A stretch of 64,000 nucleotides of DNA from contig JBAYTA010000001.1 in assembly GCA_041675865.1 (NCBI GenBank), forward strand, positions 6,332 to 70,331, written 5' to 3'. Under the pieces are notes generated by a model. That model did not search any database, was not told the origin of the DNA, and was given only the letters and a program-made list of their open reading frames with translations. Below, piece by piece: positions 7,866 to 50,878 of the stretch. How positions within the stretch are numbered: position 1 is the first letter of the stretch; each line of letters begins with the position of its first letter. The DNA comes from Bacilli bacterium. GTDB taxonomy: Bacteria > Bacillota_I > Bacilli_A > ML615J-28 > CAG-698. A program made the position numbers and the translations under genes.

Positions 7866-8095
7866 TCTATTTTAATAAATCGTTAAGGTAAGAATAGTAA
7901 TTAATTTGTTTTAAGTTAAAGCGAAAAGTGGTTGGTGAGAGCACTTACTTAAATATTAATGAAGGACACTTGCTTAGATTCCACCTAGGACGTAAATCTT
8001 GCGTTAAAGATTAAAGTGCATCATTTTGATGAAGTAAGGTGGTACCACGGATTAACAAATTCGTCCTTAAGATTTTTTCTTAAGGACTTTTATTT
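7866..8095 (+). promoter_or_regulatory. T-box riboswitch leader (tRNA-sensing transcription attenuator) of hisS-aspS
   Basis: The conserved T-box sequence 'AAGGTGGTACCACGG' lies at 8036-8050. It is followed by the terminator hairpin GTCCTTAAG..CTTAAGGAC plus TTTT at 8063-8092. A candidate specifier region 'GAAGGACAC' is at 7961-7969. Confidence 0.8.
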
Positions 8096-31226: not shown

Positions 31227-32129
31227 ATGGATAAGTATTTAAAAGAATATATATATTACATTAAAGGTGAATTAAATCTTGGAACCAATACTGTAGAGTC
31301 TTATACGAAAGATATTGAACAGTATATTGATTTTCTTAAAACATATAGACACAAAAACAATCCAGAGGATATAGAAATTCCAGATATAAGAAACTATATG
31401 AGCAGTTTAAAAAGAAAGTTTTTAGCTGCTGGAACGCAAGCAAGAAAACTAACTGCGATAAAGAGTTTTCATAGATTTTTGTTTTTAGAAAAATATACTA
31501 CTAGAAATGTTTCTAAAACTATTTCTAGTCCAAAACAAGAAGACAAGCTTCCGATAGTTTTATCGATAGAAGAAGTTAAGATTTTACTTGATTCTTTAAA
31601 AAGTGATACGCCTCTTAATTTAAGAAATAAAGCTATGATTGAAGTTGCTTATGCATGTGGTTTAAGAGAAAGCGAGTTAATAGGATTAAAAATAAGTGAT
31701 TTGCACTTAAACCAAGGTTTAATAAATATATATGGTAAAGGTAACAAAGAAAGAATTGTTCCAATTAATAAAAAGGCAATTGCTACAATCAATGATTATT
31801 TAGAAAATTCTAGACCTATTTTACGTTCTAATCAAAGCAAAAATATTCTCTTTTTAACAAAATCCGGAAACGCTGTTCCAAGAACATATTTTTATAATAT
31901 TGTAAGAGATGCAGCTATTAATGCTGGATTAAGAAAAAAAGTAACTCCGCATATGCTAAGACATTCATATGCTTCACATTTACTTGAAAACGGATTAGAT
32001 TTACGTTTAATTCAAGAATTACTAGGGCATGAAGATATTAGTACCACTGAAATATATACTCATATAAATAATACAAAACTAAAAGATGTTTATATGTCAG
32101 CTCATCCAAGAGCTAAGAAAGGACATTAA
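31227..32129 (+). CDS. xerD: site-specific tyrosine recombinase XerD
   Basis: An N-terminal SAM-like domain and the catalytic R..HxxR..Y residues ('HMLRHSYASHLLENG..EIYTH'). It is about 300 aa. Confidence 0.85.
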   Translation: MDKYLKEYIYYIKGELNLGTNTVESYTKDIEQYIDFLKTYRHKNNPEDIEIPDIRNYMSSLKRKFLAAGTQARKLTAIKSFHRFLFLEKYTTRNVSKTISSPKQEDKLPIVLSIEEVKILLDSLKSDTPLNLRNKAMIEVAYACGLRESELIGLKISDLHLNQGLINIYGKGNKERIVPINKKAIATINDYLENSRPILRSNQSKNILFLTKSGNAVPRTYFYNIVRDAAINAGLRKKVTPHMLRHSYASHLLENGLDLRLIQELLGHEDISTTEIYTHINNTKLKDVYMSAHPRAKKGH

Positions 32130-34534: not shown

Positions 34535-36679
34535 ATGAAGAAAATATTTAAATTTTTATTATTGTTTTTTATTGCTTATACAATAACTACATTTAGTTTA
34601 AAAGTACAAGCAGCTGATGGCCCAATTATGGTCATTGTAAATCCAGGAGAAGACTCATCAACAATGATGAATATAAGCTATCATACTAGTTTAGAGAACA
34701 CTGTTATCCAATATTATGAAGCGCCTTCAGGATCAGCACAAATGATTATGCCAGAATGTAGAGCTACTCCATTTACTGAAAACAATAATTATCAATGTTT
34801 CGCAACATTGACAAACTTAAAACCTGATACAACATACAATTATTATATATTAGGTTATTCAAGCTATGTAGAAAGATCATTTAAAACTGCTGGAGCTGAT
34901 GAATTTTCATTTGTTCATGTAACAGATATTCATTCTTATAGAAGTGGTGCTAGTAATACTAGAGTAGCTACTGCAAATAAAGTTTTAAATACAATTAACC
35001 AAATTAAAGATTTTGATTTTACTCTAATGTCTGGAGATGTTACCGCATATGGTACTGTTTATGAACAATGGGAAACATTATATGGAATGGATGTTTTAAA
35101 ATCAAAAATGACTGCAATTACCCCTGGTAATCATGATTATTACAATACAAGTGCTGCAGTTGTTAGTATAGACTATTTTAATTCAGTTCTAAATAATCCA
35201 AAAAATGGAGCAGATGGCGTCCTTAATTCCACATATTACTTTAAATATGGGAATACATTATTTATTTCCTTAAACTCTGAAGAAGCTGCAAACAATTCTA
35301 CATTAAGAGCAAATCAAATAAAATGGTTAAATGAAGTTACCGCAAATAATCCTTCAGATTTTATTGTTGTTTTTACTCATAGACCGTTTTATACTGGTGA
35401 CAATTTGAATGCTGGCCAAGCAAGCGATATGAGAACATATTTCCAAGAAATATTTGATAAGACTGGTGTTGATTTAGTTTTAGGTGGACATAATCATGTT
35501 TATGCTAGAACAAATCATGTCTATCAAAATAATAAAGTTCTAGAAACAAACCCTAAATATCCGTATTTAGGAACGGTTTATTTAACTGGAATTCAAATTG
35601 GAGATCGTTATAAAACAGAACCAGGTACTAAACCTAGTATAGTTGAAGTGGCACATGTTGGTGCAGGTCAAGATGGTGGAAGTTTAATTACAGTTAATCA
35701 AGATAAAATTACTATCGAATTTATTAAACATGATGGAACAAGATTGTATCCATATGAAATTTTAAACAAATCTAAAGTAATAAATAAACAAAGTATTGAA
35801 TCAAGCGTTGAAGTATCTAAAACTAATGATACTATCAATATTGATTATTCACAAAATACTTTAGTTGGTAGTGTTAAAAAAGTAAATGTTTATGATGAAA
35901 ATAAAACTCTTTTAAAAACATTCTTGAACCCAACAAATCATTTAGAAATCGAAAATGGTCCAAAGGTGGGAAGATATAATCTTGAAGTAGAAATGTTTTT
36001 AAGAAATGGTGAAGTAATTAATAAAAATGTAGTAGCGATAGATAGTAGATATGACTTCGGGACAGTATTTGATTTTGAAACTGTAGAAGAAGAACTTTAT
36101 ACAAATTTAACTTGGAAAGCTGATGTGTTAAAAGATAAATTTGTTAGATATGAAATATATGCAAACGGCTCAAAATTAAAGGAAGTATCCAAAGATGCTA
36201 CATCGACAGTTTTGGATAAAATAAGCCCTTATAAAGAAAATGATATCTCATTCAGAGTTATTGGTGATAACAATTCTATACTTTATCAATATGATTTTGT
36301 TTATGGTGAAAATGCTAATGATATCCATGTAGTCTTCAATATAGAAAAACTAAGATTAAAAGAAGGCGATGAAAAGGATTTAGAAATTACTGTTTTCCCA
36401 GAACAAGATGTAAAATTAGAATTTGTTTCTAGTGATCCAAATGTTGCAACTGTTGATGAAAATGGTAAAGTTACTGCTATTGGTGAAGGTACATGTACAA
36501 TAAGTTTAAATGTTGCTAAACGTTGGGATGTAAAATCAGAAATAGAAATTACCGTAGAAGCTTCTCCAGTTAAAGATCCGACTCCTCCAACTAAAAAAGG
36601 ATGTTTCCAAGGTGGAAGTATATTTGTAGGATTTGCAGTTATAGGATTAGTAGTTATTTTAAGAAGAAAAAGATTTTAG
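34535..36679 (+). CDS. secreted, C-terminally membrane-anchored metallophosphoesterase (purple-acid-phosphatase-like) with Big_2 domain
   Basis: A signal peptide; calcineurin-like motifs 'GDVTAYG', 'GNHDY' and 'GGHNHVY'; a Big_2-like 'VATVDENGKVTAIGEGTCTI'; and a C-terminal transmembrane helix plus an 'RRKRF' tail. Confidence 0.8.
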   Translation: MKKIFKFLLLFFIAYTITTFSLKVQAADGPIMVIVNPGEDSSTMMNISYHTSLENTVIQYYEAPSGSAQMIMPECRATPFTENNNYQCFATLTNLKPDTTYNYYILGYSSYVERSFKTAGADEFSFVHVTDIHSYRSGASNTRVATANKVLNTINQIKDFDFTLMSGDVTAYGTVYEQWETLYGMDVLKSKMTAITPGNHDYYNTSAAVVSIDYFNSVLNNPKNGADGVLNSTYYFKYGNTLFISLNSEEAANNSTLRANQIKWLNEVTANNPSDFIVVFTHRPFYTGDNLNAGQASDMRTYFQEIFDKTGVDLVLGGHNHVYARTNHVYQNNKVLETNPKYPYLGTVYLTGIQIGDRYKTEPGTKPSIVEVAHVGAGQDGGSLITVNQDKITIEFIKHDGTRLYPYEILNKSKVINKQSIESSVEVSKTNDTINIDYSQNTLVGSVKKVNVYDENKTLLKTFLNPTNHLEIENGPKVGRYNLEVEMFLRNGEVINKNVVAIDSRYDFGTVFDFETVEEELYTNLTWKADVLKDKFVRYEIYANGSKLKEVSKDATSTVLDKISPYKENDISFRVIGDNNSILYQYDFVYGENANDIHVVFNIEKLRLKEGDEKDLEITVFPEQDVKLEFVSSDPNVATVDENGKVTAIGEGTCTISLNVAKRWDVKSEIEITVEASPVKDPTPPTKKGCFQGGSIFVGFAVIGLVVILRRKRF

Positions 36680-36847
36680 ATTAAAACGAGATTAAACTCT
36701 CGTTTTTTACTATTTTAAGCGGTTTTTTATCAAAAAAAGGCGTTTTACAGCGATTTATCTTTTTTTAGCTTGATATTTATCAATAGTTTTATTTTAGATG
36801 GTTTATAGGAGATGTACTGTACCATCTTAAAGTGGTCTTAGTAATAA

Positions 36848-36876
36848 TTGACTTTAGAGTTAATTTCTTGTATAAT
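36848..36876 (+). promoter_or_regulatory. consensus sigma-A promoter
   Basis: TTGACT, an exact 17-nt spacer, then TATAAT, about 35 nt upstream of the 36913 start. Confidence 0.6.
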
Positions 36877-36912
36877 AACAAAGTCGATTAATAATGAAAG
36901 GACTTTAGCAAA

Positions 36913-37494
36913 TTGAAAAAATATTATAAAACTAGAAAAAGATTTTTTATCGTAGTAATTTGCTTTATTACTTTAATATCAGGATATAGTATATTAAAAG
37001 GTATAATAAATAAAAATACCAATTCAGATCAATTAGCTGAATTTGGTTTTAATAATATAACAATAGAAGAACTAGTTCAAGGACTTGATTCTAATGATAT
37101 AAATAAACCAAATTTAAGTGCATCAATTACAGGGACTCATTTACTTCTGGCAAATGCAGATAAATCTGTTAAGATCCCTTTAAGTAATGATAAATTCTAT
37201 GTGTCATTTGCACCCTATATAAATAATACCCATACTTGTAGTAATCATAATTTAATTACTTGCACAAGTGAGCTTAAAAATGAATCTTTCCATGTTCTTA
37301 TATTAGATGAAACTGGTAAGGCTATTATAGATAAATATGTGCAAAGTATGGATAATGGTTTTATAGGCATGTGGATGCCAAAAAACATAACAGGCAAATT
37401 AATTGTCTCTTATAATGGATTAAAAGCAAGTACAAATATCACTACATTTAATGATAGTAATACTTGCATCACTACACCATTAAAATTAAATTAA
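36913..37494 (+). CDS. small secreted/lipid-anchored Cys-containing protein (hypothetical)
   Basis: A TTG start, an N-terminal signal anchor, and four Cys residues in 'HTCSNHNLITCTSE'. Confidence 0.5.
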   Translation: MKKYYKTRKRFFIVVICFITLISGYSILKGIINKNTNSDQLAEFGFNNITIEELVQGLDSNDINKPNLSASITGTHLLLANADKSVKIPLSNDKFYVSFAPYINNTHTCSNHNLITCTSELKNESFHVLILDETGKAIIDKYVQSMDNGFIGMWMPKNITGKLIVSYNGLKASTNITTFNDSNTCITTPLKLN

Positions 37495-37504
37495 ATATAA
37501 ATAT

Positions 37505-37545
37505 ACAGCCCTTATATTCTAAGAATAGGGGCTGTATTTCATCTC
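37505..37545 (+). terminator. rho-independent terminator
   Basis: An ACAGCCC..GGGGCTGT stem followed by T-rich sequence. Confidence 0.6.
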
Positions 37546-37703
37546 TACTGGCTTTATTTAGGATAATATAATGTTTACTCTAACTACTAACTGAATCGAT
37601 TAGGGATTAAATATGAAATGAATGCTTGTTTTTGATTTAAGAAATTTGTATAACAACAAATATAGTCAAAAAATGCAAATGAATACGTTTATTTGAAGAT
37701 AAT

Positions 37704-37784
37704 TGTCGAAAGTAAATATGAAATATATGTCGAAATATTAGGTGAATATCAATTTTTAGAACATAAATTATATAAAATTCGACA
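37704..37784. promoter_or_regulatory. cluster of three perfect Spo0A-box heptamers
   Basis: TGTCGAA at 37704-37710 and 37728-37734, and TTCGACA at 37778-37784. The region has no ORFs. Confidence 0.4.
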
Positions 37785-38702
37785 TTCATCACTTTATAAA
37801 CTGCGCTTTGGATCTTTGTTTTAGCAATAATCATTATTATAAGGTTGGTCTAGTGTAATTTAAAATATCAAGGACTAAATTTCGCGTACAATCATTTTAA
37901 ATATGTATTTCTATTAACTAATCATTTAATATTAAAATTGATTATAGAGGAAATTTAAGGGCTTTAGTTAATTTACTCTTTTAATGTTAGAATATATATC
38001 ATTTATTAGATGAATCCACAAATCACTATTATGCATGGCCCAATAAAAAAATAGATCGTATAAAAAAATAAGCTTCTGTGAGAGGCTTATTTAAATTTGA
38101 GAGGGTATAAATTAATAGATACTAGAAGCTAATATGAGGATTTTAATTTAATATATAATATAATTGCTTTATACTCATTGTTATCAACAGTTATACAGTT
38201 TTACACATTGTTTTGATATATTAGCCATAGTGCTATATATATTTAACTTAACATAATATACATTATAGGAAGTTGTTTTACTATTGAATTATTCATTTAA
38301 TTTAACGGTTTAACCAATACTTTTATGGTTCTATTCTTTTTCCAAGACATCTTGTAATAACCTTATGATGACTTATTAAGCATATAATAGATAATCTTCT
38401 CTCATGAGCAGTTATTGTTCAGCTTTTATAAGTTTAAATTATAAAACAAAATTATATATCTGAAGTATATTTTTATATTAATGTACTTTCATAATAACTT
38501 ATGCATGTATACCCACAACTAATAATATAAATGTCTCTTGGAGCGGATACATACCAGATTTATATGGCTAAGAAAATTGTAGAATAATGTAATATAATCC
38601 TGATATATGATAACATAAAATGCTTTAATTTGAAACAACATTTTTATAAAATTTAATTCGCAAATCTAAGTTCAAATTTATTATTAAATTATTAATATAA
38701 AT

Positions 38703-38729
38703 AGTGCCTTTAGTATAAACTAAGGCACT
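38703..38729 (-). terminator. hairpin downstream of the ABC exporter operon
   Basis: An AGTGCCTT..AAGGCACT stem about 90 nt past the stop of the last ABC gene. Confidence 0.45.
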
Positions 38730-38816
38730 CTAATAAAGTATTATTGGTAAATACCCATCCTATTAAAGATAATTGTCTCCTAGGAAGGGTATTTTTTTGT
38801 TTAGTAACTTTAATTA

Positions 38817-40595
38817 TTAATTTAGTTGATAATTTTCCGATTGGGTTTTAAAAAGCTTATAATACAAAGAATTTTTATCTTTCATTAGATTTTTATGTGT
38901 ATCATAAGAAACTACTTTGCCTCCATCTAAGACTAATATATAATCACAGAATACTGATGATGACATACGGTGAGAAATATAGATTGCTGTTTTATCAAGC
39001 ACTAGTTCATTAAAGTGTTCATAGATTTCTGCTTCTGCTATTGGATCCAATGCAGATGTTGGTTCATCTAAAATAACTAAGCTTGAGTTTTTATATAGAG
39101 CTCTTGCAATAGCAATTTTTTGTCCTTGACCACCAGATAGTTCTATACCATCTTCATCAAATGATTTATTTAATCTTGTATTAATACCTTTAGGTAATTC
39201 AGTAATTTTTTCAGTTAAGCCAACTTGATCAATAATTTTATTTAGTTGCTCTTTTGCAGTTTGTTCTTCTCCTGTAATGTTTTTTATAATCGAATACGCA
39301 AACAATTTATAATCTTGAAACACAATTGAAATTGCATCTAAATAAGATTTATAATTATAATCATAGATACTTTTATCATTGATTAAAATCTCTCCAGAAT
39401 CTGGCTCATAGAATCTACATAGTAATTTAATTATAGTTGTCTTACCTGCACCGTTTAATCCAACAATCGAGATTTTTTCTCCCTTATTTATTTTGAATGA
39501 TACATTATCAAGGATTAAGTTATTTGATTTTGGGTAAGTAAAACTAACATTTTTAAATTCAATTTTTTCTATTTCCTTTAGTTCTAAATCACTAGGTACT
39601 TCTAATGCATTTGGTAATTGCATAAACTCCACAAATGGATTTAAATAATCTAATAATTGCATCATATCAATTACATTATTAAATAAACCATCAAATGTTT
39701 TAGAAAAGTTGATTGCGGAATTTGCAAACATTGTGAAATCACCAATGGTTATTTTCTTTGATGTTTCTACAGTTGAAGCTAATAATCCAACATATAAATA
39801 AACTAACCCAGTTTGAAGCGCTGTTAATAACGACTGCAATCCTTGTACAATACCCATATTCCTAAAGAATTTTTTGAAGTTAGATACATTTACTTTGTTG
39901 TAATGTTGAACTCTATCTAAGATTAAAGGACTCATATTATATAAACGCATATCTTTAGATAATCTTTGATCATTCGTTAAGTTAAAATAATAGTTGTATT
40001 TTCGATTAATTGGTATAATACTTTGAAAGAAATTGACTTGGTATTTCATAAATTGACTATTAATCACTAAAGTTATAATAACTCCGATTAGTAATATTGT
40101 TATTAAAATATAACCCAGAGTTAGCATAATAGCAATTAATCCTAACAATGTAATAAAGTTTGTTACAAGCCCTGATAATCCATTAACCATTCTTTGGAGT
40201 GCATTTTGATTATTTATCGCAAATGCTGCTCTTTCTTTTAAGTCTAAATAATATGGATCTTCTAGATGCTTATATTCTACTTTCATAATTTTAATAGACA
40301 TTTCTTCCATAACTTTATAAGATACTTTTCTTTGTTTTACTTCAAGCAATCTCTTATATATTTTGTTAATTAAATTAATAATCAAATTAAAGCCAACAAT
40401 AGCTATACCGTAATAAAAAGCTGTCATAAGATCCTTATTTATTATTAGTTCATCAATCAAAAATTTAGGTAAAATTACATTTCCTATTACTTGAATTGAA
40501 GAAAATAACGATCCAAATATTGTTAAAAATATAAATCCTGGAGAAACCTTAAACATTAATTTCAATAGATATTTAATTTTCTTAAATGCTTTCAT
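38817..40595 (-). CDS. ABC exporter subunit (fused TMD-NBD), heterodimer partner 2
   Basis: Six transmembrane helices, Walker A 'GLNGAGKTT', signature 'LSGGQGQKIAIARAL', and Walker B 'VILDEPTSALD'. Confidence 0.9.
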   Translation of the reverse strand: MKAFKKIKYLLKLMFKVSPGFIFLTIFGSLFSSIQVIGNVILPKFLIDELIINKDLMTAFYYGIAIVGFNLIINLINKIYKRLLEVKQRKVSYKVMEEMSIKIMKVEYKHLEDPYYLDLKERAAFAINNQNALQRMVNGLSGLVTNFITLLGLIAIMLTLGYILITILLIGVIITLVINSQFMKYQVNFFQSIIPINRKYNYYFNLTNDQRLSKDMRLYNMSPLILDRVQHYNKVNVSNFKKFFRNMGIVQGLQSLLTALQTGLVYLYVGLLASTVETSKKITIGDFTMFANSAINFSKTFDGLFNNVIDMMQLLDYLNPFVEFMQLPNALEVPSDLELKEIEKIEFKNVSFTYPKSNNLILDNVSFKINKGEKISIVGLNGAGKTTIIKLLCRFYEPDSGEILINDKSIYDYNYKSYLDAISIVFQDYKLFAYSIIKNITGEEQTAKEQLNKIIDQVGLTEKITELPKGINTRLNKSFDEDGIELSGGQGQKIAIARALYKNSSLVILDEPTSALDPIAEAEIYEHFNELVLDKTAIYISHRMSSSVFCDYILVLDGGKVVSYDTHKNLMKDKNSLYYKLFKTQSENYQLN

Positions 40596-42372
40596 GTTCT
40601 TCTCCTTGTTGATAGTACTTACCTTGAACTACAAACATATTATAGTATTCACCTTTTAATTGCATTAGTTCATCATGAGTACCATATTCTTCTAATACTG
40701 AATTATTAAATAAGGCAATTTTATCGCAAAATTTTGTGCTAGCAAGTCTATGTGATATGAAAATTGTTGTATGATCTTTAACTAGATTATTAAAGTTTTC
40801 ATATATTTCTGCTTCTGCTAGAGCATCTAATGCTGCAGTTGGTTCATCTAAAACTACCATTTTACCATTTTTATATAATGCTCTTGCTATAGCTAGTTTT
40901 TGATTTTCCCCACCACTAAAAATAATTCCTGACTCATCAATATTCTTAAGCATAATTGTATCTAGACCATGGTCAAGATTTCTAACTTTATCTCCTAAAC
41001 CTACTAAATCTAAACACTTCCAAATTCTTTCTTCGTCATTTGATAAACCTAGAGTAATATTTTCTCTAACTGAGAAAGCAAGAATATTTATATCTTGAAA
41101 CACAGGTGCAAATAGGCTTTGGTATGTCTCTTTATCATAATCTAATGCATTAATTCCGTTTACTAAAATAACTCCTTCAGTGGGTTTAAATAATCTAAGT
41201 AATAATTTCACAATCGTTGTCTTACCGGCACCATTTATACCAACGATTGCTAGTTTTTCGCCTTTTTCAATTTTTAAGTTTAAATTTTTTATAATCCATT
41301 TTTCTGTTTTAGGATATTTGAAACTTACATTCTTAAACTCAATTTCAAGTGTTTCACTTTCAATGTTACTAATTCCTTGAGATTTTTCATTAAAATCTGT
41401 ATCCATAAAGACAAAATAGTCATTTAAATACTGACCCTTGCTTATTAAGAAAATAATATCTTCTACTAAAACTTTTAATAATGTAGTTAGAGCTAAAGCA
41501 GCAAGTAAATAGAAGGAAAACGATGCAATATCCATTCCATCAATTACCTTTGTAATTAGAAAATAGAATAATAAACCATCACTAATTAGTACAAATAAAG
41601 CATCAATCAAAGCAAGGAAATATTCTTTGTTTTTTATTTTGCGAAAAACAGATAAATACGATTTTATTTCAAAATCATAGCTTTCAGTAATACTTTTTTC
41701 AAAATTATATAAACGAATATCTTTTCCAAAACTGAAATCTTGAGCTGTACTTTCAAAGTATCTTAATCTCCTATTAGCATTTGCAAGATTTTTCTTTTGT
41801 TTAAAGTTTATATTTTTAATAATAAATGCACTAAAAACACTAAATATTAATGATAAGATGATAGAACCAACGACTAAGATGTTTAAGGTTATTAAAAAAT
41901 AAATGTAAATCAAAGATAGCATTATCTTAGAAGCAAAAACAAAGAGTCTTCTTATCACCTCTTCAAAATCATTACCTCCTATAACATCATAAGCATCACT
42001 ATTTTCATTTAAAAAGTTTGGATCCTCTGTATAATGATAATCTAAGCGGTTTGTTTTATCAAAGATATTTGTGAGTAGATCAATTCTTACTTTCATTACT
42101 TTCACATAAACATTGGTATGTATATATCTTTCAAAAAATGAAAAAACACCAATTACAATAGTTATAACACCTACTATTAATAATAATTCTTCTACAATGA
42201 TAGATGCATCTTGTAAGCCTTCAATAATTAATCTTGGCATGAAGATGGCAAGTATGGGTACAGTTGTTGCTAGAATTGTATAAATTAGAAATAGTAAAAA
42301 TAAACTTTTTTCAGATTTCCAAATTTCATTTACTGATCTTTTCATTGTTTTTAAAAAAGAATATTTTTTCAT
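40582..42372 (-). CDS. ABC exporter subunit (fused TMD-NBD), heterodimer partner 1
   Basis: Walker A 'GINGAGKTT', signature 'FSGGENQKLAIARAL', and Walker B 'VVLDEPTAALD'. It overlaps both neighbours. Confidence 0.9.
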   Translation of the reverse strand: MKKYSFLKTMKRSVNEIWKSEKSLFLLFLIYTILATTVPILAIFMPRLIIEGLQDASIIVEELLLIVGVITIVIGVFSFFERYIHTNVYVKVMKVRIDLLTNIFDKTNRLDYHYTEDPNFLNENSDAYDVIGGNDFEEVIRRLFVFASKIMLSLIYIYFLITLNILVVGSIILSLIFSVFSAFIIKNINFKQKKNLANANRRLRYFESTAQDFSFGKDIRLYNFEKSITESYDFEIKSYLSVFRKIKNKEYFLALIDALFVLISDGLLFYFLITKVIDGMDIASFSFYLLAALALTTLLKVLVEDIIFLISKGQYLNDYFVFMDTDFNEKSQGISNIESETLEIEFKNVSFKYPKTEKWIIKNLNLKIEKGEKLAIVGINGAGKTTIVKLLLRLFKPTEGVILVNGINALDYDKETYQSLFAPVFQDINILAFSVRENITLGLSNDEERIWKCLDLVGLGDKVRNLDHGLDTIMLKNIDESGIIFSGGENQKLAIARALYKNGKMVVLDEPTAALDALAEAEIYENFNNLVKDHTTIFISHRLASTKFCDKIALFNNSVLEEYGTHDELMQLKGEYYNMFVVQGKYYQQGEEHESI

Positions 42373-43394
42373 AATAAATTGCTCCTTATGGTATTTAGTA
42401 CTTGATTAAGTCTAGTTTTATTAATTTCGTAATAAATTTTTTTATTATCATTAGGATCGATTACCATTTTTAATAAATAATTATTTACTAAAATATTTAA
42501 ATGGTGATTTATTGTAGCTGCACTTAGACCTAATTGGGATGCAATATCACTTCCATATGTTTGTTTTAGAGATAGAATTTTTAAGATTTTGTATCTTGTC
42601 GAATCGCTTAATGATTTTATAACATTTAATGCTTCCTCTTCATCATTGTTTTTATTTTTAATCAGATTAGTAAATTTAAAAACTAAATATCCGACATAAA
42701 TATAACGTTTATTATCCATTGTTTTATGAAAAATATAGCTATAATCACTTATACTAATATTAATTTCAGTTGTACTATTTTGATATATCTCTTCTCCTTT
42801 AAAGAAATCATTTAAAAGTGTAGGTAGAGTATCAGTATCTTGAATAATATTATATAATTCCATAACTTCTTCTTCTACAAAATGATAATATTTTTGGTAA
42901 ATTACAGCTGATTTTTCTACACATTCTATAATCTCTAAAAACAGTTCTTCTCCACCAGTATATAAACTGATTAATGTTAATTTATCTTTATCATCCATAT
43001 CCAAGCCATTTATGATATTTAATATATCATTAAAATCTAAGGTCTCACTATAATCTTCTTTAAACGCAAGATCTGACTCAAAAAATCGATTAATAAATAT
43101 TTTATGATCTAACTTTTCACTATTTATATACTTTACATAGAGTCTATTTAAAACAGGAATTGTATTTGATTTAACTATGAAATATGGAATTAATTTATCT
43201 GGTACAGAAACTTCATTTTTAAAACTACTTTTTAACTTAAAATAATTATTGAGTAATTTTTTTACTTCATTTCCATCCAAACCATATTCTTCTATTTCGC
43301 CCAACAATTCTTGATCAATATTTTTATCTGAGTACAATTTGTGAATTAAGTCAATCGCTTCTTTCTTAAAATCAATTTGCTTATTTATAAACAT
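42369..43394 (-). CDS. ArsR-family HTH protein with about 250-aa N-terminal extension of unknown function
   Basis: The C-terminal 'LSDSTRYKILKILS..GSDIASQLGLSAATINHHLNILVNNYLL' is an ArsR/SmtB-type HTH. The N-domain has no recognisable enzyme motif. An AGGAGG RBS precedes the ATG. Confidence 0.65.
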   Translation of the reverse strand: MFINKQIDFKKEAIDLIHKLYSDKNIDQELLGEIEEYGLDGNEVKKLLNNYFKLKSSFKNEVSVPDKLIPYFIVKSNTIPVLNRLYVKYINSEKLDHKIFINRFFESDLAFKEDYSETLDFNDILNIINGLDMDDKDKLTLISLYTGGEELFLEIIECVEKSAVIYQKYYHFVEEEVMELYNIIQDTDTLPTLLNDFFKGEEIYQNSTTEINISISDYSYIFHKTMDNKRYIYVGYLVFKFTNLIKNKNNDEEEALNVIKSLSDSTRYKILKILSLKQTYGSDIASQLGLSAATINHHLNILVNNYLLKMVIDPNDNKKIYYEINKTRLNQVLNTIRSNLL

Positions 43395-43412
43395 AATAAT
43401 CCTCCTGCCAAT

Positions 43413-43441
43413 ATTATATAAAAATATTAGACCGATGTCAA
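43413..43441 (-). promoter_or_regulatory. perfect consensus sigma-A promoter (minus strand)
   Basis: On the minus strand: TTGACA (43441-43436), a 17-nt spacer, then TATAAT (43418-43413), followed by the AGGAGG RBS. Confidence 0.65.
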
Positions 43442-43443
43442 CA

Positions 43444-43473
43444 ATTATTATTAGATAATTATCTAATAATAAT
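43444..43473. promoter_or_regulatory. 30-bp perfect palindrome abutting the -35 element (candidate operator)
   Basis: ATTATTATTAGATAATTATCTAATAATAAT is a perfect inverted repeat centred at 43458/43459. Confidence 0.5.
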
Positions 43474-43487
43474 GATAAAAAAAGAAA

Positions 43488-44282
43488 CTAGAACTCTTTT
43501 CTAATTTCTTCATTTATTTTTTCAATATATTCATTTGCTTTTTTCACAACACTTAACTTATTTCCATTTTTTGCAACACTTCTAAAATATTCTAATGCTC
43601 TTTTATAATCTGTTTGTTTATATGCAATCAATCCTAAATAATAAACATTTACTACTACATTAAATTTAGGGAAATTTGCTCTAAAAATTTTAGAAAACTC
43701 TTGCTCTGCAAGATTTAAATGGATATTTGCTAGGATATAATATCTTGCTATTATTTGATTATAATTAGATATTAACTGAGTTTTAAATTTTAGAGGGATT
43801 ATGTCAATCAATTCCTTTACTTGATTAATTAGTGTCTTAATTCGCTCTAATTCTTTTGTTTCCTCAAAATAATATATCCATGCTTTATAATACCAAAATC
43901 TAAGTGGAGGGCTAAAATTGGGCTCAAATTCGACTAAATCATCTAAAATATTCTTTGCTTCACCAAGTTCTCCAAGCGATAAATAAGCTAGACTTATTGT
44001 AATTTCATTTAAATATTTATTAGTTTTTGCTTGAATAAAATTACTTAAATATTTTTTATATTCAGTTATATATTTTAAAGGATCACATTCATCCAAATAT
44101 ATTTTTGAAATTCTTAGTAAATTTACTTTTTCTAATCTTAAAGTAAAATAATAAATTGCAAATAGGATTATTCCAATTAATATATATACACTTGACTGAA
44201 TTATCTCTAATATCACAAGAGGTAATACAAATACTACATAAATCGATGCAATAATCAATACGATTAATCTTAGTTTACTCAT
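43488..44282 (-). CDS. membrane-anchored TPR-repeat protein
   Basis: Two N-terminal transmembrane helices followed by TPR-like helical repeats. Its start overlaps the PHP gene stop by 4 nt. Confidence 0.6.
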   Translation of the reverse strand: MSKLRLIVLIIASIYVVFVLPLVILEIIQSSVYILIGIILFAIYYFTLRLEKVNLLRISKIYLDECDPLKYITEYKKYLSNFIQAKTNKYLNEITISLAYLSLGELGEAKNILDDLVEFEPNFSPPLRFWYYKAWIYYFEETKELERIKTLINQVKELIDIIPLKFKTQLISNYNQIIARYYILANIHLNLAEQEFSKIFRANFPKFNVVVNVYYLGLIAYKQTDYKRALEYFRSVAKNGNKLSVVKKANEYIEKINEEIRKEF

Positions 44283-45067
44283 ACATTTTTCCCAAATAAA
44301 TAGTGGACAATATTTAATTTTAAATCTCTTGCAAACTTGTAGGCTTTTTTAACATTTACATCACCTGTATAAGAGATTTTATGATTGTCTTCACCAATTA
44401 TAACTTTCGCCTTTTCATATTCTTGAACAATTTTCCAAAACTCGATTCTAGGATAAATATGAACAATATCTCCATCTTGATTAGTTATTGGTTTTCTTCT
44501 AATACCGTTAGCATTAACTTCTAATAAAACATTATATTTAATACTAGCTTCAATAATTTCTCGACTTACCTTTTCAGTCATTTGATTCCATGTTTGATAA
44601 TTAAATAAAAACAAATCAGGATGAGCTAATATTTTAAAATAACCAGTATTCATTCCTTCAATAACTTGATCTTTATATAAAACAACATTCTCTGCTGTCA
44701 TTTCTCTATAAATATCATATAGTTTATTTTTATTTCTAATAATATGCTGGCCTAAAATTAAATAATCTAACTCATCTAATAATTTTTTATAATAATCATT
44801 GTATTCATTCAGATATTCGATTTCTAAGCCTTTATATATTTTAATTTTATCACCATATTCTTTTATTGCAGCATCTAAAGAAGGTAAATAAATATTTCTA
44901 TATTCTTGTTTATTCATTCGAAATGTCCATTCATCTAAGAGTGGACCATGGTCACTTATACCAATTTCTTCATATTTTAATTCTATAGCTTTTTTAATAT
45001 AATCGGCTGGCATACCCTCTGCATGCTTACATAATTTGATATGTGTGTGATAATTTGTTTTATTCAT
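44279..45067 (-). CDS. PHP-domain phosphoesterase, HisJ (histidinol-phosphatase) family
   Basis: 'YHTHIKLCKHAEG' and 'GISDHGP' are HisJ-type PHP metal-binding motifs. Confidence 0.7.
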   Translation of the reverse strand: MNKTNYHTHIKLCKHAEGMPADYIKKAIELKYEEIGISDHGPLLDEWTFRMNKQEYRNIYLPSLDAAIKEYGDKIKIYKGLEIEYLNEYNDYYKKLLDELDYLILGQHIIRNKNKLYDIYREMTAENVVLYKDQVIEGMNTGYFKILAHPDLFLFNYQTWNQMTEKVSREIIEASIKYNVLLEVNANGIRRKPITNQDGDIVHIYPRIEFWKIVQEYEKAKVIIGEDNHKISYTGDVNVKKAYKFARDLKLNIVHYLFGKNV

Positions 45068-46088
45068 AATTAAATCCTTTATATATTTTTACCCATTTTG
45101 CACTTCTTCCCTTGCCCAAAGGTTTAATTCGCCCTTCATCACGCATTTTCATCAAAGCTCTATTAATTGTAGATTCACTAACATATGGATGGATAATCCT
45201 AATTTCATCTTTTGTGAAAATGTCTGGAAGCTTGGAAATAGTATTACCTATATTATCAGCTTTATTTAAGTTTGAATCAAATTTATAATCTTTAATAATA
45301 CTATAAGCTTTTTCATAACCATTTATTATTATTTTATCCATAAATCTAATAAAACCTAATGTTTGCGCAAATCCTTCTTTCCAATTAAAACTTGCATTTT
45401 TAACTTCAGTTTTGAATTCATTGTAATTTTCATATAATAGTTCAAAAAAGGAAATATATTTAAATGCTTCTAAATCAGATTTAAAAATTAATAAATAAAG
45501 TAATACAAAACTTGATGTAAAGTTGTTTTCTGTAAAAGGTGCGATGTTGTAAAAATCTATAAAGTAATTAAAAAACAAAGTTGTTCTTTCGTATGTATTT
45601 CTTTGAAGATAGATTTCCATTTGCTCATTAATTTCGTCTAAAATAAGTCTTTTACTTTTTGCTGCTTGACTTTTTAAAATAGCTCTTTTATTTGTTTCTA
45701 CAAAATCAAATTTAATATCTTTATAATGAGAATAAATATAATTTATTATATTTAAAACATCATTGCTTTGAAATCTTTGATGCTGATAGTTCCTTTGAAT
45801 ATTAGTTAAGGTTTCTTTTAAATTATAAAGTGTTGTTTCTTCTTTATTTCTAGGAGTTGAGTTTTTAGTTATAATCAAACGTGTTCTAGAATCAGTAATA
45901 TCTAGTTCTAATATTTGTGATAGAAAAAAAGTATCTCTTTCAATAGTTTGATCAATTATCTTATCAAGATCATTTTTTACAGCATCTTTAAAAAACTTAT
46001 TTTGACCTATCCATTTATAGATATTTGATAAAGAAACTATAATATCATTAGGGATAATGAACCTATCTATATTTAAAACTGTACTCAT
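45060..46088 (-). CDS. Fic-family-like protein with degenerate active-site motif and C-terminal winged HTH
   Basis: The central 'IAPFTENNFTSSFVLL' aligns to the Fic 'HPFx[DE]GNGRxxR' motif, but His, both Gly and both Arg are replaced. The C-terminal 'RIKPLGKGRSAKWVKI' resembles the Fic-associated wHTH. Confidence 0.55.
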   Translation of the reverse strand: MSTVLNIDRFIIPNDIIVSLSNIYKWIGQNKFFKDAVKNDLDKIIDQTIERDTFFLSQILELDITDSRTRLIITKNSTPRNKEETTLYNLKETLTNIQRNYQHQRFQSNDVLNIINYIYSHYKDIKFDFVETNKRAILKSQAAKSKRLILDEINEQMEIYLQRNTYERTTLFFNYFIDFYNIAPFTENNFTSSFVLLYLLIFKSDLEAFKYISFFELLYENYNEFKTEVKNASFNWKEGFAQTLGFIRFMDKIIINGYEKAYSIIKDYKFDSNLNKADNIGNTISKLPDIFTKDEIRIIHPYVSESTINRALMKMRDEGRIKPLGKGRSAKWVKIYKGFNYE

Positions 46089-46108: not shown

Positions 46109-46181
46109 AGCCTTCTAATAAATGTTTATCGATAAATATCCATCTTTGAAAAGATAAATGTCTATTAGAAGGCGTTTTTAT
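46109..46181. terminator. long hairpin (bidirectional terminator-like) with nested palindromes between parC and the Fic-like gene
   Basis: GCCTTCTAATA (46109-46119) pairs with TATTAGAAGGC (46162-46172), flanked by T-runs on both strands. TTTATCGATAAA and ATCTTTGAAAAGAT palindromes sit inside the loop. Confidence 0.5.
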
Positions 46182-46209: not shown

Positions 46210-48690
46210 TTAGCTAAAATCGTTGTTATTTCTAACAATTATTAAATTTAATGGTGTTTTTACTTTTTTAGAATTAATCTTTTTACCTGTTGCACTAGTA
46301 GCACTTCTTATATCAGAGAAATCTAATTTTTCATATCCTTCTTCACCATCAATATATGAATCTAGATCTAGATTAGCATTTTTACGATGAATTATACTTG
46401 ATGAAATTATATTGTTGTTCACAGTTTTCATCATTTGCATATATTGTTTACCAACATTGTTTTTTCTTCCCTTGATAATTTCATCTATTCTAAATCTCTT
46501 AACATTACAGTTAGCAGTTAAGACTACTATTAGATCTTTTTCATCAATATAATGTCCACCAACTACAACATCTTTTGGTCTACTCTTAAGTTCTATTGCT
46601 TTTACTCCAACTGCAGAAATTGCCATTTCTGGTATTTCTTCAGAACTATATCTGTTCATATAACCATCAGCAGTAATAACAACTACTTCAGGATTTACTT
46701 CACTTGTAATATCTACACTTACTACTTCATCATCATCTCTTAATTTAGTAGCTCTAAGTGCTCTTGAATATCTTGTCGCATACAGATGTTTCACATGTGT
46801 CTTTTTAATAAAACCATTTTTTGTAGTAAACAGTATATATTTATTTGCTTCAAAATCATCAATTGGAACTGAGAATATTACTTTTTCAACTGATTCAATA
46901 TTAACTAAAGTTGATATATGGTAACCCAAATCTTTATGTTTCACATCAGGTATTTTTGAAACTGGTAAATATACATAATTTCCACGATCTGTAAAGAATA
47001 ACATTACATCTAATGTAGTAACTTCATAAGTAGCAACTATAAAGTCATTATCTTTAAGTTTAGTTTCATCACCATTTGCATAAGCCTTTGGTGTAAGTCT
47101 TTTAATATAGCCATCATTAGTTAAAATGATTACCATATCTTCTTTCGCAATCAACTCTTTAACTTCAACTTTTACTTCTTCAATTTCATGTTCAATTACT
47201 GTTTTTCTTGGAACATTAATTTTCTTATATGTATTTTTAAGTTCTAGTTTTATTTGTTTAACTAATTCATCTTCACTAGAAAGGATAGCAACTAGCCTAT
47301 CAATAAGTTCATTAAGTTCTTCTTTTTCTTTTTGTAAAGCAAAAATATCGGTATTTGTAAGACGATATAATTGCAACATTACAATAGCTTCAGCTTGAGC
47401 ATAAGAGAATTCATAATTACTTACTAAATTTTCTATTGCATCTTTTTTGTTGTTAGAATTCCTAATTGTTTTAATAACAGCATCTAATATAGATACCATT
47501 GAAATTAATCCGTCGACTATATGTAATCTTTTCCTTGCGGCATTTAATTCATAATTACTACGGTTAATTACTACATCTTTTTGATGAGTTATATAGTAAT
47601 CTAAATACTCAATTAATCCTAGTTGTAGGGGACGTTTATTAGCAATTGCAACTATATTAAAGTTATAGTTTGATTGTAATTCAGTTGCTTGGAAGAAGAA
47701 ATTTTTAATATCTTCAGGATTCACATCTTTTCGAATATCAACAACAATTCTTAAACCTTCTCTATCTGTTTCATCTCTAATATCTATAATTCCATCAATG
47801 TTTTTCTTTACATAAACTTCACTCATTTTTTTAACTAAATTAGCTTTGTTTACATCATAAGGAATCTCAGAAATGATAAGCTTATACATCTTAGACTCTT
47901 CTGTTATTTCTACCTTCGCTTTTACAATTATCTTTCCCTTACCAGTTTTATATGCATTAATAATTCCGTCTAACCCTTGGATAATCCCTCCCGTTGGAAA
48001 ATCAGGACCCGGAACAATTTTCATCAAATCTTTTAAACTTGCATCAGGATGATCTAATTTATAAATTGTAGCTTCGATAATCTCACCAACATTATGAGGA
48101 GGAATTTCAGTTGCATAACCAGCAGATATACCTGAAGCTCCATTTACAAAGAGATTCGGATATTTAGCAGGTAATACAGTAGGTTCATATTCTTCATCAT
48201 CAAAATTAGGAATAAAACCAACAGTTTTTTTATTAATATCTTCTAATAAATATTCAGAATACATTGATAATCTTGCTTCTGTATAACGCATTGCCGCAGC
48301 AGGATCACCGTCAATACTTCCATTATTACCATGCATTTCAATTAAAGGTAGTCTTGTTTTAAAATCTTGAGACATTCTCACCATAGCATCATAAACAGAT
48401 GAGTCACCATGAGGATGATATTTACCTATAACTTCACCAACAATTCTTGCAGATTTCTTAAATGGTTTATTTGAAAACATTCCAAGTTTAAACATTGCAT
48501 AAAGAATTCTTCGTTGTACAGGTTTTAAACCGTCTCTAACGTCAGGAATTGCTCTATCTTGAATTATATATTTAGAATATCTACCAAACCTATCACCAAA
48601 TATATCTTCAAGATTTTCTTGGATTATTTTCTCATTTACGAATTCTTCAATTTTTTTAGTTGTTTTACTCTTTTTAGATCTATTCATCAA
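46210..48690 (-). CDS. parC: DNA topoisomerase IV subunit A
   Basis: The type IIA A-subunit catalytic region contains a ParC-like '[22 protein letters not shown]'. It is paired with parE and sits next to plsY, as in Bacillus. Confidence 0.8.
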
Positions 48691-50623
48691 TTGATACCTC
48701 TTCTAAAGTGAAATTATCTTCGAATTCAAATGAAACATTATTATCAATCCATTCTCTTCTTGGACCTACTTCATCCCCCATTAGTACACTTACACGATTA
48801 TCTGCATCAGAGAAATCTTCAATCTTTACTTGAATAAGTGTTCTAGTTTCTGGATTCATTGTTGTATCCCAAAGTTGATCTGCATTCATCTCACCCAAAC
48901 CTTTAAATCTTTGGATTAAAACATTTTTATTAGATTCAACTTTTGCTTTTAATTCTTCGTCAGTCCATGCATATTCAATTTTATTTTTTATTGTTAATTT
49001 ATATAATGGTGCTTGCGCAATATATACATAACCTTGTTCAATTAATTCTCGCATATATCTAAAGAAGAATGTTAGTAATAATACTTGAATATGTGCTCCA
49101 TCAGTATCAGCATCGGTCATAATGATAATTTTGCTATAGTTTGATTTATCTATATTAAATTCTCTACCAAACCCTGCACCAATAGAATAAATCATTGACA
49201 TTATTTCTTCATTTTTAAGTAAATCTTCTGTCTTGATTCTTTCTACATTTAAGACCTTACCTCTAAGAGGTAGGATAGCTTGGAAGCGACGATCTCTTCC
49301 TTGTTTAGCACTACCACCAGCTGAATCACCTTCGACGATAAATAATTCATTATTCTTACGATTTTTATCTTGAACTGGTGCTAACTTCCCAGCCATATTT
49401 GCAGTCTTACCAACTTTTTGTTTAATCATTCTAACTTCTTCACGCGCTTTTCTAGCAGCTTCGCGTGCTTTTGCAGCTCGGATTGCATTAGAGATTAAGA
49501 TATTTGCAATTTCTCCCTTTTCATTTAAGAAGAATTTCATTTGTTCTAGAACAATAGTTTCAACTGCAAGTTTTGCTTCAGTAGTACCTAATTTATTTTT
49601 TGTTTGTCCTTCAAATTGAAGTATATCTTCGCCTACTCTAATTGATAAAACAGCAGTTAAACCTTCTCTAACATCATTACCTTCTAAATTAGGATCCTTA
49701 TCTTTTAATAAACCCTTCATTCTTGCATAATCATTAAATGCTCTAGTAATTGCTGCTCTAAAGCCTGTTTCATGTGTTCCACCATCTCTAGTACGAATAT
49801 TATTAACAAAGGATAATACATTCTCAGAGAATGATTTTTTAGAATATTGAAGAGCACATTCAACTTGAATATTTGAGTTTGTTCCTTCTAAGAAAACGAC
49901 TTCATGAATAGCTTGTTTACCTTTATTTATTTCCTCCACAAATTCAGAAATACCATTTTCAAACATAAAGGTATCACTTGCACCAGTTCTTTCATCAACT
50001 AAATCAATTTTTAAACCTCTGATTAAAAATGCAGATTCTCTTAGTCTTTGTACACATTGTTTATAATCAATAATGGTTGTTGAAAAAATAAGTGGGTCTG
50101 GTTTAAAATGAACTGTAGTTCCAGTTTTCTTTGATTCACCAATAAATTTATGCTTATGGATCTTTGCTCCACCATTCTCAAATTTTTGGTAATAAATCTT
50201 TCCTTCTCTTGCAATCTTAAGTTCAACAAGTTCACTTAATGCATTTACAACACTCGAACCAACACCATGTAGGCCTCCAGACACTTTGTATGCACCACCA
50301 GCTTCAAATTTTCCACCAGCATGTAAAGTACAAAATACTACTTGCGGAGTAGGTACTCCAGTCTTATGCATACCAATAGGAATTCCTCTACCATTATCTA
50401 TAACCTCAACAGAATTCCCTTTATGAATGATAACTTTTACATAGTTTGCATATCCGGTCAAAACTTCGTCAATTGCATTATCTACAATTTCCCAAATTAA
50501 ATGATGTAGTCCTCTTGAATCCGTACTTCCAACATACATACCAGGACGTTTTCGAATAGCTTCTAACCCTTGTAAGACTTGAATTTTGGATTCATCATAT
50601 TTTTCAATTTTCTTCTTGGCCAT
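48680..50623 (-). CDS. parE: DNA topoisomerase IV subunit B
   Basis: A GHKL ATPase with TOPRIM 'EGDSAGG'. I chose the ATG at 50623 giving '[22 protein letters not shown]'; the GTG at 50632 is an alternative. Confidence 0.8.
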
Positions 50624-50878
50624 ATTTAACACAAACCTTTCATTAGTATAATTTATTATAGCATATATTTAATAAAAAGTAAACAACTATTATCATTATT
50701 TTATTATGCTCATATGCAATAAATGAGTATGTTTATTGTAGAGAATTATGTCGAATTTGAAAATGTTGACTATATTAAAAAGAGATCTTTTTATAGATTA
50801 TTGTCATTTTAAATTAAATATTTGCTTGTTTTAATATCCCATTTAGAGTATAATAGATATCATATAAAGGTGTATTAA

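Follow-up and report, generated by a model that had tools for sequence, protein, structure and literature searches.

Six genes near the replication terminus in an uncultured Acholeplasmataceae genome, probably three juxtaposed units

Introduction

Class II Fic proteins with a C-terminal winged helix have been described in several bacteria, as exemplified by those of Bordetella bronchiseptica (8UQU), Shewanella (SoFic, 3EQX/3ZCN), Coxiella (CbFic2, 8CIL), and Desulfovibrio (Dde_2494, 4RGL). Other members of the family, the toxins of the FicT/Fic-1 type, are small, active class I proteins that are accompanied by antitoxins and are functionally linked to the B subunit of topoisomerase IV (Topo IV). 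They AMPylate both GyrB and ParE, the latter at Tyr109 (PMC7479194). In E. coli, XerC brings Topo IV to the chromosomal dif site, and MatP modulates the enzyme (PMC4865107). The present work deals with a block of six minus-strand genes (g1 to g6) that begins behind parC, one of the two Topo IV genes, with a gene for a Fic-like protein, and that ends close to a dif site. The block lies in a stretch of 64,000 nt of an uncultured Acholeplasmataceae genome (contig JBAYTA010000001.1, assembly GCA_041675865.1), called here the window. A preliminary description of this DNA had presented the six genes as a single accessory operon; as argued below, they are probably not one system but three units lying side by side where replication terminates.

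The second half of the block recalls two further kinds of described systems. The first is formed by autorepressors with a winged helix-turn-helix (wHTH), such as CzrA (with czrB), SmtB, CadC, and those of the SdpR subfamily, which are encoded beside efflux genes in regulator-first operons with a transporter and have a palindrome at their own promoter. The second is formed by the heterodimeric exporters of the ABCB type, represented in Firmicutes by BmrCD, LmrCD, EfrCD, and PatAB, and also by TM287/288; their hallmark is one degenerate ATP site, and they are encoded by two adjacent genes for proteins of ~600 amino acids (aa), each with a transmembrane domain followed by a nucleotide-binding domain (NBD). 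Pumps of the BmrCD/LmrCD type are regulated by PadR, attenuators, or leader peptides.

Six Genes, Probably in Three Units

A scan of the window for open reading frames (ORFs) under translation table 11 reproduced the six genes of the preliminary description with their coordinates, and the labels g1 to g6 follow their order on the minus strand (Table 1). The G+C content of the region is ~25%, the table-11 ORFs are intact, and the nearest relatives are Acholeplasmataceae or "Bacilli" metagenome-assembled genomes. The position of parC upstream of the block is borne out by its TIGR01061 score, and the domain calls were also recovered: PHP, a weak tetratricopeptide repeat (TPR), an ArsR helix-turn-helix (HTH), and two ATP-binding cassette (ABC) half-transporters by profile match, and the pseudo-Fic/wHTH protein by both profile and fold match. 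The four gene overlaps that had been read as translational coupling are present (8 nt for g1/g2, 4 nt for g2/g3, 4 nt for g4/g5, and 14 nt for g5/g6), and a Shine–Dalgarno-like motif is found at the start of each of the six genes. Coupling is thus supported at these four junctions, but not for the block as one string, because the 93 nt separating g3 from g4, which form the sole non-overlapping junction, carry a promoter and a palindrome.

The comparison with related genomes also divides the block. Comparison loci carrying relatives of g1 or of the g4–g6 cassette were fetched and given L-numbers; the scan for g1 orthologues took one genome per species and yielded 65 loci at identities down to 30%, from Acholeplasmatales, Anaeroplasmataceae, Izemoplasmatales, Haploplasma, and Liberiplasma, and the neighboring genes were counted by a tblastn census. 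Far from being accessory, g1 is a conserved partner of parE–parC across Acholeplasmatales, Anaeroplasmataceae, and Izemoplasmatales. On the other hand, none of the 36 species loci with at least 6 kb of downstream sequence has ArsR/ABC genes downstream of g1; unlinked genes in related genomes, which had been named beforehand as evidence against a single system, are thus found for the two halves. Only contigs with a g1 at least 76% identical to the window gene (L072, L073, L080, and L081) have the complete array, and the close relatives of g4 form only six clusters in a search of 5.8 billion proteins, all in the same six-gene array.

A single system, in which the TPR protein would sense, the two HTH proteins would regulate, the PHP enzyme would process the signal or substrate, and the ABC pair would export, agrees with the co-directional and tightly packed genes. 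The six-gene order is moreover kept in the clade, on five distinct contigs, despite ArsR identities of 36–52%, the order persisting down to 36–43%, and this speaks against a mere juxtaposition, as it could reflect selection for linkage rather than simple vertical inheritance. A single system is nevertheless improbable: g1, g2, and g3 occur in many species where the cassette is missing, in other Firmicutes the cassette stands without g1–g3 and under an operator and promoter of its own, g1 goes with parC and dif rather than with the exporter, and in L080 an opposite-strand ORF of 160 aa splits the array at the junction of the TPR and ArsR genes. The claim of one accessory operon is thus largely refuted by the 93-nt promoter gap, the nested synteny, and the independent cassettes. 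What survives of the proposed sensing, regulation, and export module is the resemblance of g4–g6 to a regulator with its exporter, whereas the membership of g1–g3 is unsupported.

Replication Terminus and dif Site

The tract between the block and the next gene had been described as free of ORFs, and no ORF of at least 100 aa was indeed found in 37495–38816; but the tract is not empty, since it contains the chromosomal dif site. In a blastn comparison of the tract with the fetched loci, ~35 of them matched over a short core, which appears in the alignment as an invariant block of ~30 nt, and the dif core is invariant in 30 species. The site is present in a single copy in the window (up to three mismatches allowed, with none expected by chance), and it is identical at 24 of 28 positions to the experimentally defined dif of B. 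subtilis and at 22 of 28 to that of E. coli (counted against the sequences in PMC3025954). The site has an 11-6-11 layout like those of these two bacteria, and it lies at the skew switch with xerD nearby. GC skew passes from positive to negative at ~38.5–39 kb, and gene orientation converges there. The block therefore sits at the replication terminus, because dif, the skew switch, the convergent orientation, and a xerD gene ~6 kb from dif all coincide.

Unlike in the known dif systems, parE–parC, g1, and xerD all lie within ~12 kb of the window dif. This clustering recurs in Acholeplasmataceae and Anaeroplasmataceae, where g1 is located between parC and dif, and no description of it was found in the literature searched. 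The layout in relatives is xerD–deoB–hydrolase–dif–(TPR–PHP)–g1–parC–parE–plsY, and in many loci dif is found, in constant orientation, 50–420 nt past the last gene of the g1 block.

Another conserved element is a group of tandem DnaA-box-like repeats (TGTGNAWAA units), located ~35 nt past dif, always on the side away from g1, and recognized in an alignment of 30 loci; two or three tandem units stand at the equivalent position in ~30 loci, for example L024, L036, L048, and L071. Exact TGTGGATAA occurs in the dif flank of some species; with at most one mismatch, it is found in 15 of 32 dif flanks versus 1.9% of background windows, and 7-mers of these repeats are enriched. The repeats may represent a cluster of DnaA boxes, a site of the Ter type, or the binding site of another protein.

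On the far side of dif, the plus strand of the window (34535–37494) encodes a protein of 714 aa with homology to the Metallophos/Big_2 surface proteins found in L073 and L080, and the interval also contains the gene for a copper-binding protein of the CueP family. Neither gene was found in the more distant relatives examined, in which the hydrolase gene lies beyond dif. Both dif flanks are variable islands, because the far-side genes are present in the window clade and not in those distant relatives.

An Inactive Fic Protein Behind Topoisomerase IV

The first unit is g1, for which no Pfam or NCBIfam model matched above its cut-off. A profile of the family built from 45 sequences matches the Bordetella Fic protein 8UQU with E = 3.8e-21 over 287 of 342 positions. 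The AlphaFold2 (AF2) model of g1 has a pLDDT of 89.5, and in a Foldseek search of this model against the PDB all matches at E ≤ 0.001 are Fic proteins, including the wHTH-bearing SoFic, CbFic2, and Dde_2494, with a probability of 1.0 and TM scores of up to 0.87 on the Fic core. As modeled, g1 has the Fic/Fido fold, and in architecture it resembles the class II proteins with a C-terminal winged helix; with 8UQU it also has in common the wing motif GKGRxAKW. The wHTH is near-invariant among 60 orthologues (HP[YT][VI]S[ED]STINR...GKGRSAKW). On the other hand, the class II Fic+wHTH proteins have no described fixed position after parEC or before dif. The orthologue in the RefSeq genome of Mariniplasma is annotated as a hypothetical protein, and a search of the literature on Fic pseudoenzymes with a winged helix, on 8UQU, and on Coxiella Fic protein 2 returned nothing relevant.

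The catalytic motif of Fic AMP-transferases, HxFx(D/E)GN(G/K)R, is not present in the g1 family. In the profile alignment, HPFPDGNGR of 8UQU stands opposite xPFTxxNxx, and the motif His is missing in all 60 orthologues, the aligned segment being a variable residue followed by P-F-x-x-x-N-x-x. The class II inhibitory motif (S/T)xxxE(G/N) is not found in the family either; SNRLEG of 8UQU falls opposite "FLSKILxL", with a variable residue at the Glu position. Judged from these alignments, canonical AMPylation by g1 is excluded, because all orthologues retain no more than xPFxxxNxx of the catalytic motif and have not conserved the inhibitory Glu.

These losses bear directly on a toxic role. Since Fic toxins AMPylate ParE and GyrB, and since Bacillus plasmids and two phage records carry Fic-family proteins distantly related to g1, g1 might be imagined as part of a Fic toxin–antitoxin or anti-phage module poisoning Topo IV, but we give this explanation next to no credence. 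Apart from the missing His and the unconserved inhibitory Glu, no small antitoxin-type ORF is paired with g1, whose neighbors are parC and the PHP gene; PADLOC returned nothing for g1–g3 and only generic HTH and ATPase matches; and g1 is core-like and vertically inherited. The FicT/Fic-1 toxins share the Fic fold with g1, but g1 is a protein of 342 aa, inactive, wHTH-bearing, and without an antitoxin, encoded in or after the parEC operon.

The position of g1 is remarkably constant among the loci scanned. Enough sequence was available at 51 loci; parC immediately precedes g1 in 41 of them (median gap of 113 nt) and lies further off in five more, behind inserts of 1.8–4.2 kb. In 13 loci the parC–g1 gap measures 15–34 nt, and there g1 reads as a member of the parEC operon, because such a gap is too short for a separate promoter. 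The genes downstream of g1 vary freely, and g1 keeps its place down to 30–40% protein identity. In Anaeroplasmataceae, Haploplasma modicum, and Mariniplasma, g1 is immediately preceded by a gene whose ~550-aa product carries a uridine-kinase/PRK domain at its C terminus, and in the last two this gene is the sole one between parC and g1. The Mariniplasma locus (L082, NZ_AP024413.1, M. anaerobium pAa22_1) is a 12.8-kb circle deposited as a plasmid; it carries yneF, plsY, parE, parC, the nucleoside kinase gene, the g1 orthologue, and tsf, which are apparently essential chromosomal genes, and dif was not found on this record.

In the window, parC and g1 are separated by a long hairpin with a folding energy of -27.6 kcal/mol (z = -2.9), inside which there is a weak promoter-like site (TAGACA-18-GATATT). 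An equivalent hairpin was found in ~19 related species, in which the sequence of the outer stem differs and the pairing is kept; this covariation is described from per-sequence folds and was not formally scored. Conservation extends to the interior ("GATTATCTTT...TGGATAAT"), whose two boxes form the inverted repeat GATTATC/GATAATC in several species. The two-tier hairpin is missing where the parC–g1 gap is 15–34 nt. RNAalifold gave no consensus structure on a MAFFT alignment of 20 parC–g1 spacers, because the hairpin arms are out of register in the alignment, and Rfam had no match for the hairpin, the gene block, or the ORF-free tract. A loose regular expression for the hairpin core matched seven times in the window versus 3.9 expected, which is not a significant enrichment. 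A position weight matrix of the hairpin-loop box is weakly enriched beside dif (median of 4.4 versus 2.6 bits), and with so weak an enrichment a binding site common to the g1 leader and the dif flank is not established. The hairpin is a probable leaky terminator or attenuator that would set the expression of g1–g3 relative to parC.

The meaning of this fixed position can be read in two ways. The genes g1–g3 might have no functional tie to Topo IV or the terminus, g1 being an ordinary, perhaps autoregulatory, transcription factor on a dead Fic scaffold, whose place is inherited gene order in reduced genomes. Several observations count in this sense and against a role at the terminus: plsY–parE–parC and neighboring blocks are syntenic across the same small genomes, so that the link of g1 to parC and dif could be inherited order; the Izemoplasmatales loci keep parC–g1, and dif was not found within 10 kb; an inverted repeat and a promoter-like site lie upstream of g1; the motif common to the g1 leader and the dif flank is weakly enriched; and the active toxins acting on ParE belong to the small class I proteins, not to the wHTH-bearing type of g1, which makes the analogy with them weak. 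Inherited order is a possible explanation, if on balance a doubtful one, since the downstream genes vary freely while g1 stays, the 13 short gaps amount to operon membership, and in all five loci without an adjacent parC (L031, L048, L049, L050, and L052) g1 is still 0.3–0.4 kb from dif. A role of g1 together with Topo IV, the terminus, or both is therefore the reading preferred here. In a more specific and speculative form, which we consider unlikely as it stands, g1 would represent a new class of Fic-derived pseudoenzymes that bind DNA through the wHTH, have retained the capacity of the Fic scaffold to dock on ParE, the natural target of active Fic toxins, and recruit or modulate Topo IV at dif/XerD in Acholeplasmatales and relatives, by analogy with MatP and XerC in E. 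coli. By this comparison, the g1 family is an unannotated, universally inactivated branch of the Fic+wHTH class, positionally fixed between Topo IV and dif.

The PHP and TPR Genes

The second unit comprises g2 and g3. By its profile match, g2 is a member of the PHP family; its scores with the HisJ-family models are below the cut-offs (71.3 bits versus 90.2 for TIGR01856 hisJ_fam and 93 bits versus 202 for PRK07328), and in its match to the histidinol phosphatase of T. thermophilus (2YXO, E = 1.6e-6) the ligand positions HxH, DH, E, and H are aligned. A PHP gene follows g1 in 17 of 55 species loci, and loci with the pair span g1 identities of 40–88%; from this distribution, the g1–PHP pair is old but often lost. 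In the speculative reading of g1 given above, the phosphoesterase could be an accessory enzyme of the same process.

The third gene, g3, encodes a protein with one hydrophobic stretch (residues 1–51) and a weak TPR signal (Fis1_TPR_C, 27.8 bits), and a search of 5.8 billion proteins yielded no more than 11 clusters for it. Of 49 species loci, 12 have the TPR gene, and at 12 loci it stands without the cassette, so that a sensory role of this protein for the exporter is unsupported. The TPR protein whose gene precedes the cassette in L077 shows no homology with g3 (E = 0.14).

A Probable Autoregulated Exporter Cassette

The third unit, g4–g6, starts with a regulator in which the HTH_5 domain is confined to residues 264–304 and is preceded by an N-terminal domain of ~250 aa. 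In the AF2 model of g4 (pLDDT of 78), only the wHTH of ~90 residues matches the PDB, namely SrnR, CzrA, and SmtB, and Foldseek gave no PDB fold match for the N-terminal domain; by its modeled wHTH, g4 is a transcription factor of the ArsR/SmtB type. Neither the metalloregulators nor the SdpR subfamily was recovered. As a metalloregulator, g4 is below the cut-off of NF033788 (45 versus 55 bits) and has no Cys and no alpha-5 metal ligands in residues 250–341; as an SdpR autorepressor, it is below that of NF033789 (53.6 versus 100 bits), measures 341 aa versus ~80–90 aa, and has no sdpI-like gene adjacent. The general plan is that of CzrA–czrB, SmtB, CadC, and the SdpR subfamily, with a wHTH, a palindrome at its own promoter, and the regulator gene first in an operon with a transporter. 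Unlike CzrA, SmtB, and CadC, g4 has the long N-terminal domain and no metal ligands, and its partner is an exporter of the ABCB type instead of a CDF or P-type metal pump.

The g3/g4 gap contains a candidate operator that abuts the -35 hexamer of a predicted promoter, within whose spacer there is an extra half-site, GTCTAAT. In L072, L073, and L074, where the ArsR proteins are 43–52% identical, the half-sites ATTAGAT/ATCTAAT are invariant and the central 4 nt variable, and relatives have kept both hexamers of the promoter as well as the half-site in its spacer. The same ATTAGAT-N4-ATCTAAT is found upstream of the cassette copies in L078, L080, and L081, and with N6 in L079, and the palindromic site is unique in the window. 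Conserved half-sites with a variable center are, at the sequence level, characteristic of operators that a dimeric wHTH protein binds. The two stable hairpins behind g6 (Table 1) likewise count in favor of a separate unit. Against an independent transcription of the cassette, it must be considered that the promoter and terminator calls are consensus matches and that the promoter scan overall finds no more sites than in shuffled sequences, and that some read-through from g3 into g4 may take place, because the palindrome has no U-tract.

The products of g5 and g6 are aligned over their full length with MsbA-type models (residues 14–583 and 44–586, below the equivalog cut-offs), have ABC_tran scores of 99 and 119 bits, respectively, and contain multiple hydrophobic segments. 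Their PDB sequence matches are generic (ABCB1/MsbA, mostly through the NBD) and give no substrate clue, and a point against their assignment is that PF00664 (ABC_membrane) had no match at E ≤ 0.1 for the transmembrane domains. By their alignments and motifs, both fit the ABC type IV (ABCB-like) exporters. The two proteins are 32–37% identical, and the pair is co-conserved in every copy of the cassette. As in BmrCD, LmrCD, EfrCD, PatAB, and TM287/288, they are encoded by two adjacent genes of the transmembrane domain–NBD type, here overlapping. A sequence reading found Walker A, the Walker B Glu (LDEPT), and the H-loop His (ISHR) kept in both; the signature deviates in g5 (FSGGE) and is LSGGQ in g6. 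Both nucleotide-binding sites look competent, so that g5–g6 does not resemble the classic pump with one degenerate site, which is not evident here, and the accompanying regulator is of the long ArsR type instead of those of BmrCD/LmrCD-type pumps. Concerning a bacteriocin or peptide exporter, no C39 peptidase domain was found in Pfam, the proteins start with the transmembrane domain, the NCBIfam peptide-exporter models score far below their cut-offs, and small ORFs were not systematically searched.

The long-ArsR architecture is widespread in Clostridia and Bacilli, with 735 representatives at E ≤ 1e-10 in an exhaustive profile search, and these relatives are annotated merely as ArsR/wHTH regulators. 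Four contexts outside the window clade were examined. In three of them, the long ArsR gene is accompanied by two ~600-aa ABC genes and not by g1–g3: L077 (after smpB), L078 (on a Spo0A-bearing contig), and L079 (Sedimentibacter). The ABC proteins of these cassettes are 47–66% identical to g5/g6, and the operator and promoter layout is alike. In the fourth context the regulator stands beside an MFS exporter and not an ABC pair. Because the same trio with the same operator and promoter layout recurs in unrelated contexts, g4–g6 is probably an autonomous, autoregulated, and horizontally transferred exporter cassette, and the subtype with a long ArsR regulator and paired ABC genes appears to be uncharacterised though widespread among repressor-plus-efflux cassettes. 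In Sedimentibacter sp. zth1 (L079, 10704–13095), the cassette is directly followed by genes for PmbA/TldD-type peptidases, and a second, shorter ArsR gene with a single ABC exporter gene is found 1–3.4 kb upstream on the opposite strand.

The vicinity of dif raises the question of how the cassette arrived. As it lies ~540 bp from dif, is patchily distributed, and has ABC genes that share 61–66% identity with a copy of the Clostridia type found in the same sample, it might be the cargo of a dif-integrating mobile element (IMEX) using XerC/D. This is very improbable: no second dif-like site was found in the window at up to three mismatches, the tract has no integrase, replication, or phage genes, composition does not shift across the cassette, and terminators and ~430 nt separate the cassette from dif. 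An autonomous cassette, transferred as such, is preferred.

The coordinates of all features are collected in Table 1. Elsewhere in the window, a T-box leader (RF00230, 97.8 bits) was found at 7874–8071 on the plus strand, upstream of an ORF at 8119–9381; it is unrelated to the block.

Table 1. Coordinates of the features discussed, in the window unless a comparison locus is named.
Feature	Position	Strand	Evidence
parE, topoisomerase IV	48680–50632	-	TIGR01058 parE_Gpos, 938.7 bits, above curated cut-off
parC, topoisomerase IV	46210–48690	-	TIGR01061 parC_Gpos, 954.9 bits, above curated cut-off
Long hairpin, 64 nt, 13-bp outer stem, U-rich tail, ending just before the g1 ribosome-binding site	46110–46173	-	RNA fold
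g1, 342-aa predicted pseudo-Fic domain with C-terminal winged HTH	45060–46088	-	Profile, AF2 model, Foldseek
g2, PHP-family phosphoesterase, HisJ-like	44279–45067	-	PF02811, 66.3 bits, E = 5.5e-18, cut-off 26.4
g3, putative membrane-anchored TPR-like protein, lineage-restricted	43488–44282	-	Hydrophobicity and weak TPR matches
Candidate palindromic operator ATTATTATTAGAT-AATT-ATCTAATAATAAT, perfect 13+13 bp	43444–43473	-	Abuts -35 hexamer of g4 promoter
Predicted g4–g6 promoter TTGACA-17-TATAAT	43413–43441	-	12/12 match to sigma-70 consensus, best in 14.5-kb scan
g4, 341-aa long ArsR-type regulator	42369–43394	-	HTH_5 (PF01022), 36.2 bits, cut-off 22
g5, ABCB-type half-transporter	40582–42372	-	ABC_tran, MsbA-type alignment
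g6, ABCB-type half-transporter	38817–40595	-	ABC_tran, MsbA-type alignment
Two tandem terminator-like hairpins after g6 stop	38703–38794	-	RNA fold, -35 kcal/mol, z = -5.1, 0/200 shuffles as stable
Chromosomal dif (XerC/D target), 28 bp, ACTTCCTATAA-TGTATA-TTATGTTAAGT	38246–38273	-	Sequence match, skew, XerD
Tandem DnaA-box-like repeats	38180–38208	-	30-locus alignment
XerD equivalog	31227–32129	+	TIGR02225, 336.1 bits, cut-off 329.6
Kinase-domain gene (~550 aa) by g1	L039 8265–9926; L048 8229–9878; L052 8191–9879; L065 8361–9998; L082 7348–8988		
Two-tier parC–g1 hairpin	Carried by L001, L003, L005, L008, L009, L013, L020–L024, L032, L033, L035, L070, L072, L073		

Concluding Remarks

The history of the block may be outlined as follows. 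The first unit would be an ancient Fic-fold protein that lost its catalytic His, kept its winged helix, and is encoded directly after parE–parC; it would be co-transcribed with these genes where the gap is 15–30 nt, and expressed through the leaky hairpin or an internal promoter in the window clade. In this unit, g1 would act as a DNA-binding, non-enzymatic factor working with Topo IV, the terminus, or both. The second unit, g2 and g3, would consist of later additions translationally coupled to g1. The third would have entered the site between g3 and dif when the narrow clade was still represented by its ancestor, Clostridia-like Firmicutes being the probable donors in a horizontal transfer. 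In this cassette, a dimer of g4 would bind the palindrome and the spacer half-site and repress its own promoter, and repression would be relieved by an organic ligand of the 250-aa N-terminal domain; the wHTH region has neither Cys nor metal ligands. Finally, g5 and g6 would form a heterodimer that exports either this ligand or a toxic compound related to it.

As for the exporter, it looks like an ordinary efflux cassette under its own regulation and belongs to an uncharacterised but widespread long-ArsR subtype. With dif, xerD, and the skew switch located, the terminus of replication is fixed in a group of mostly uncultured genomes, and the ORF-free tract is accounted for. The interest of g1 lies in its being an inactive Fic protein with a conserved wHTH, encoded in or after the Topo IV operon and beside dif, across a branch of wall-less Firmicutes.

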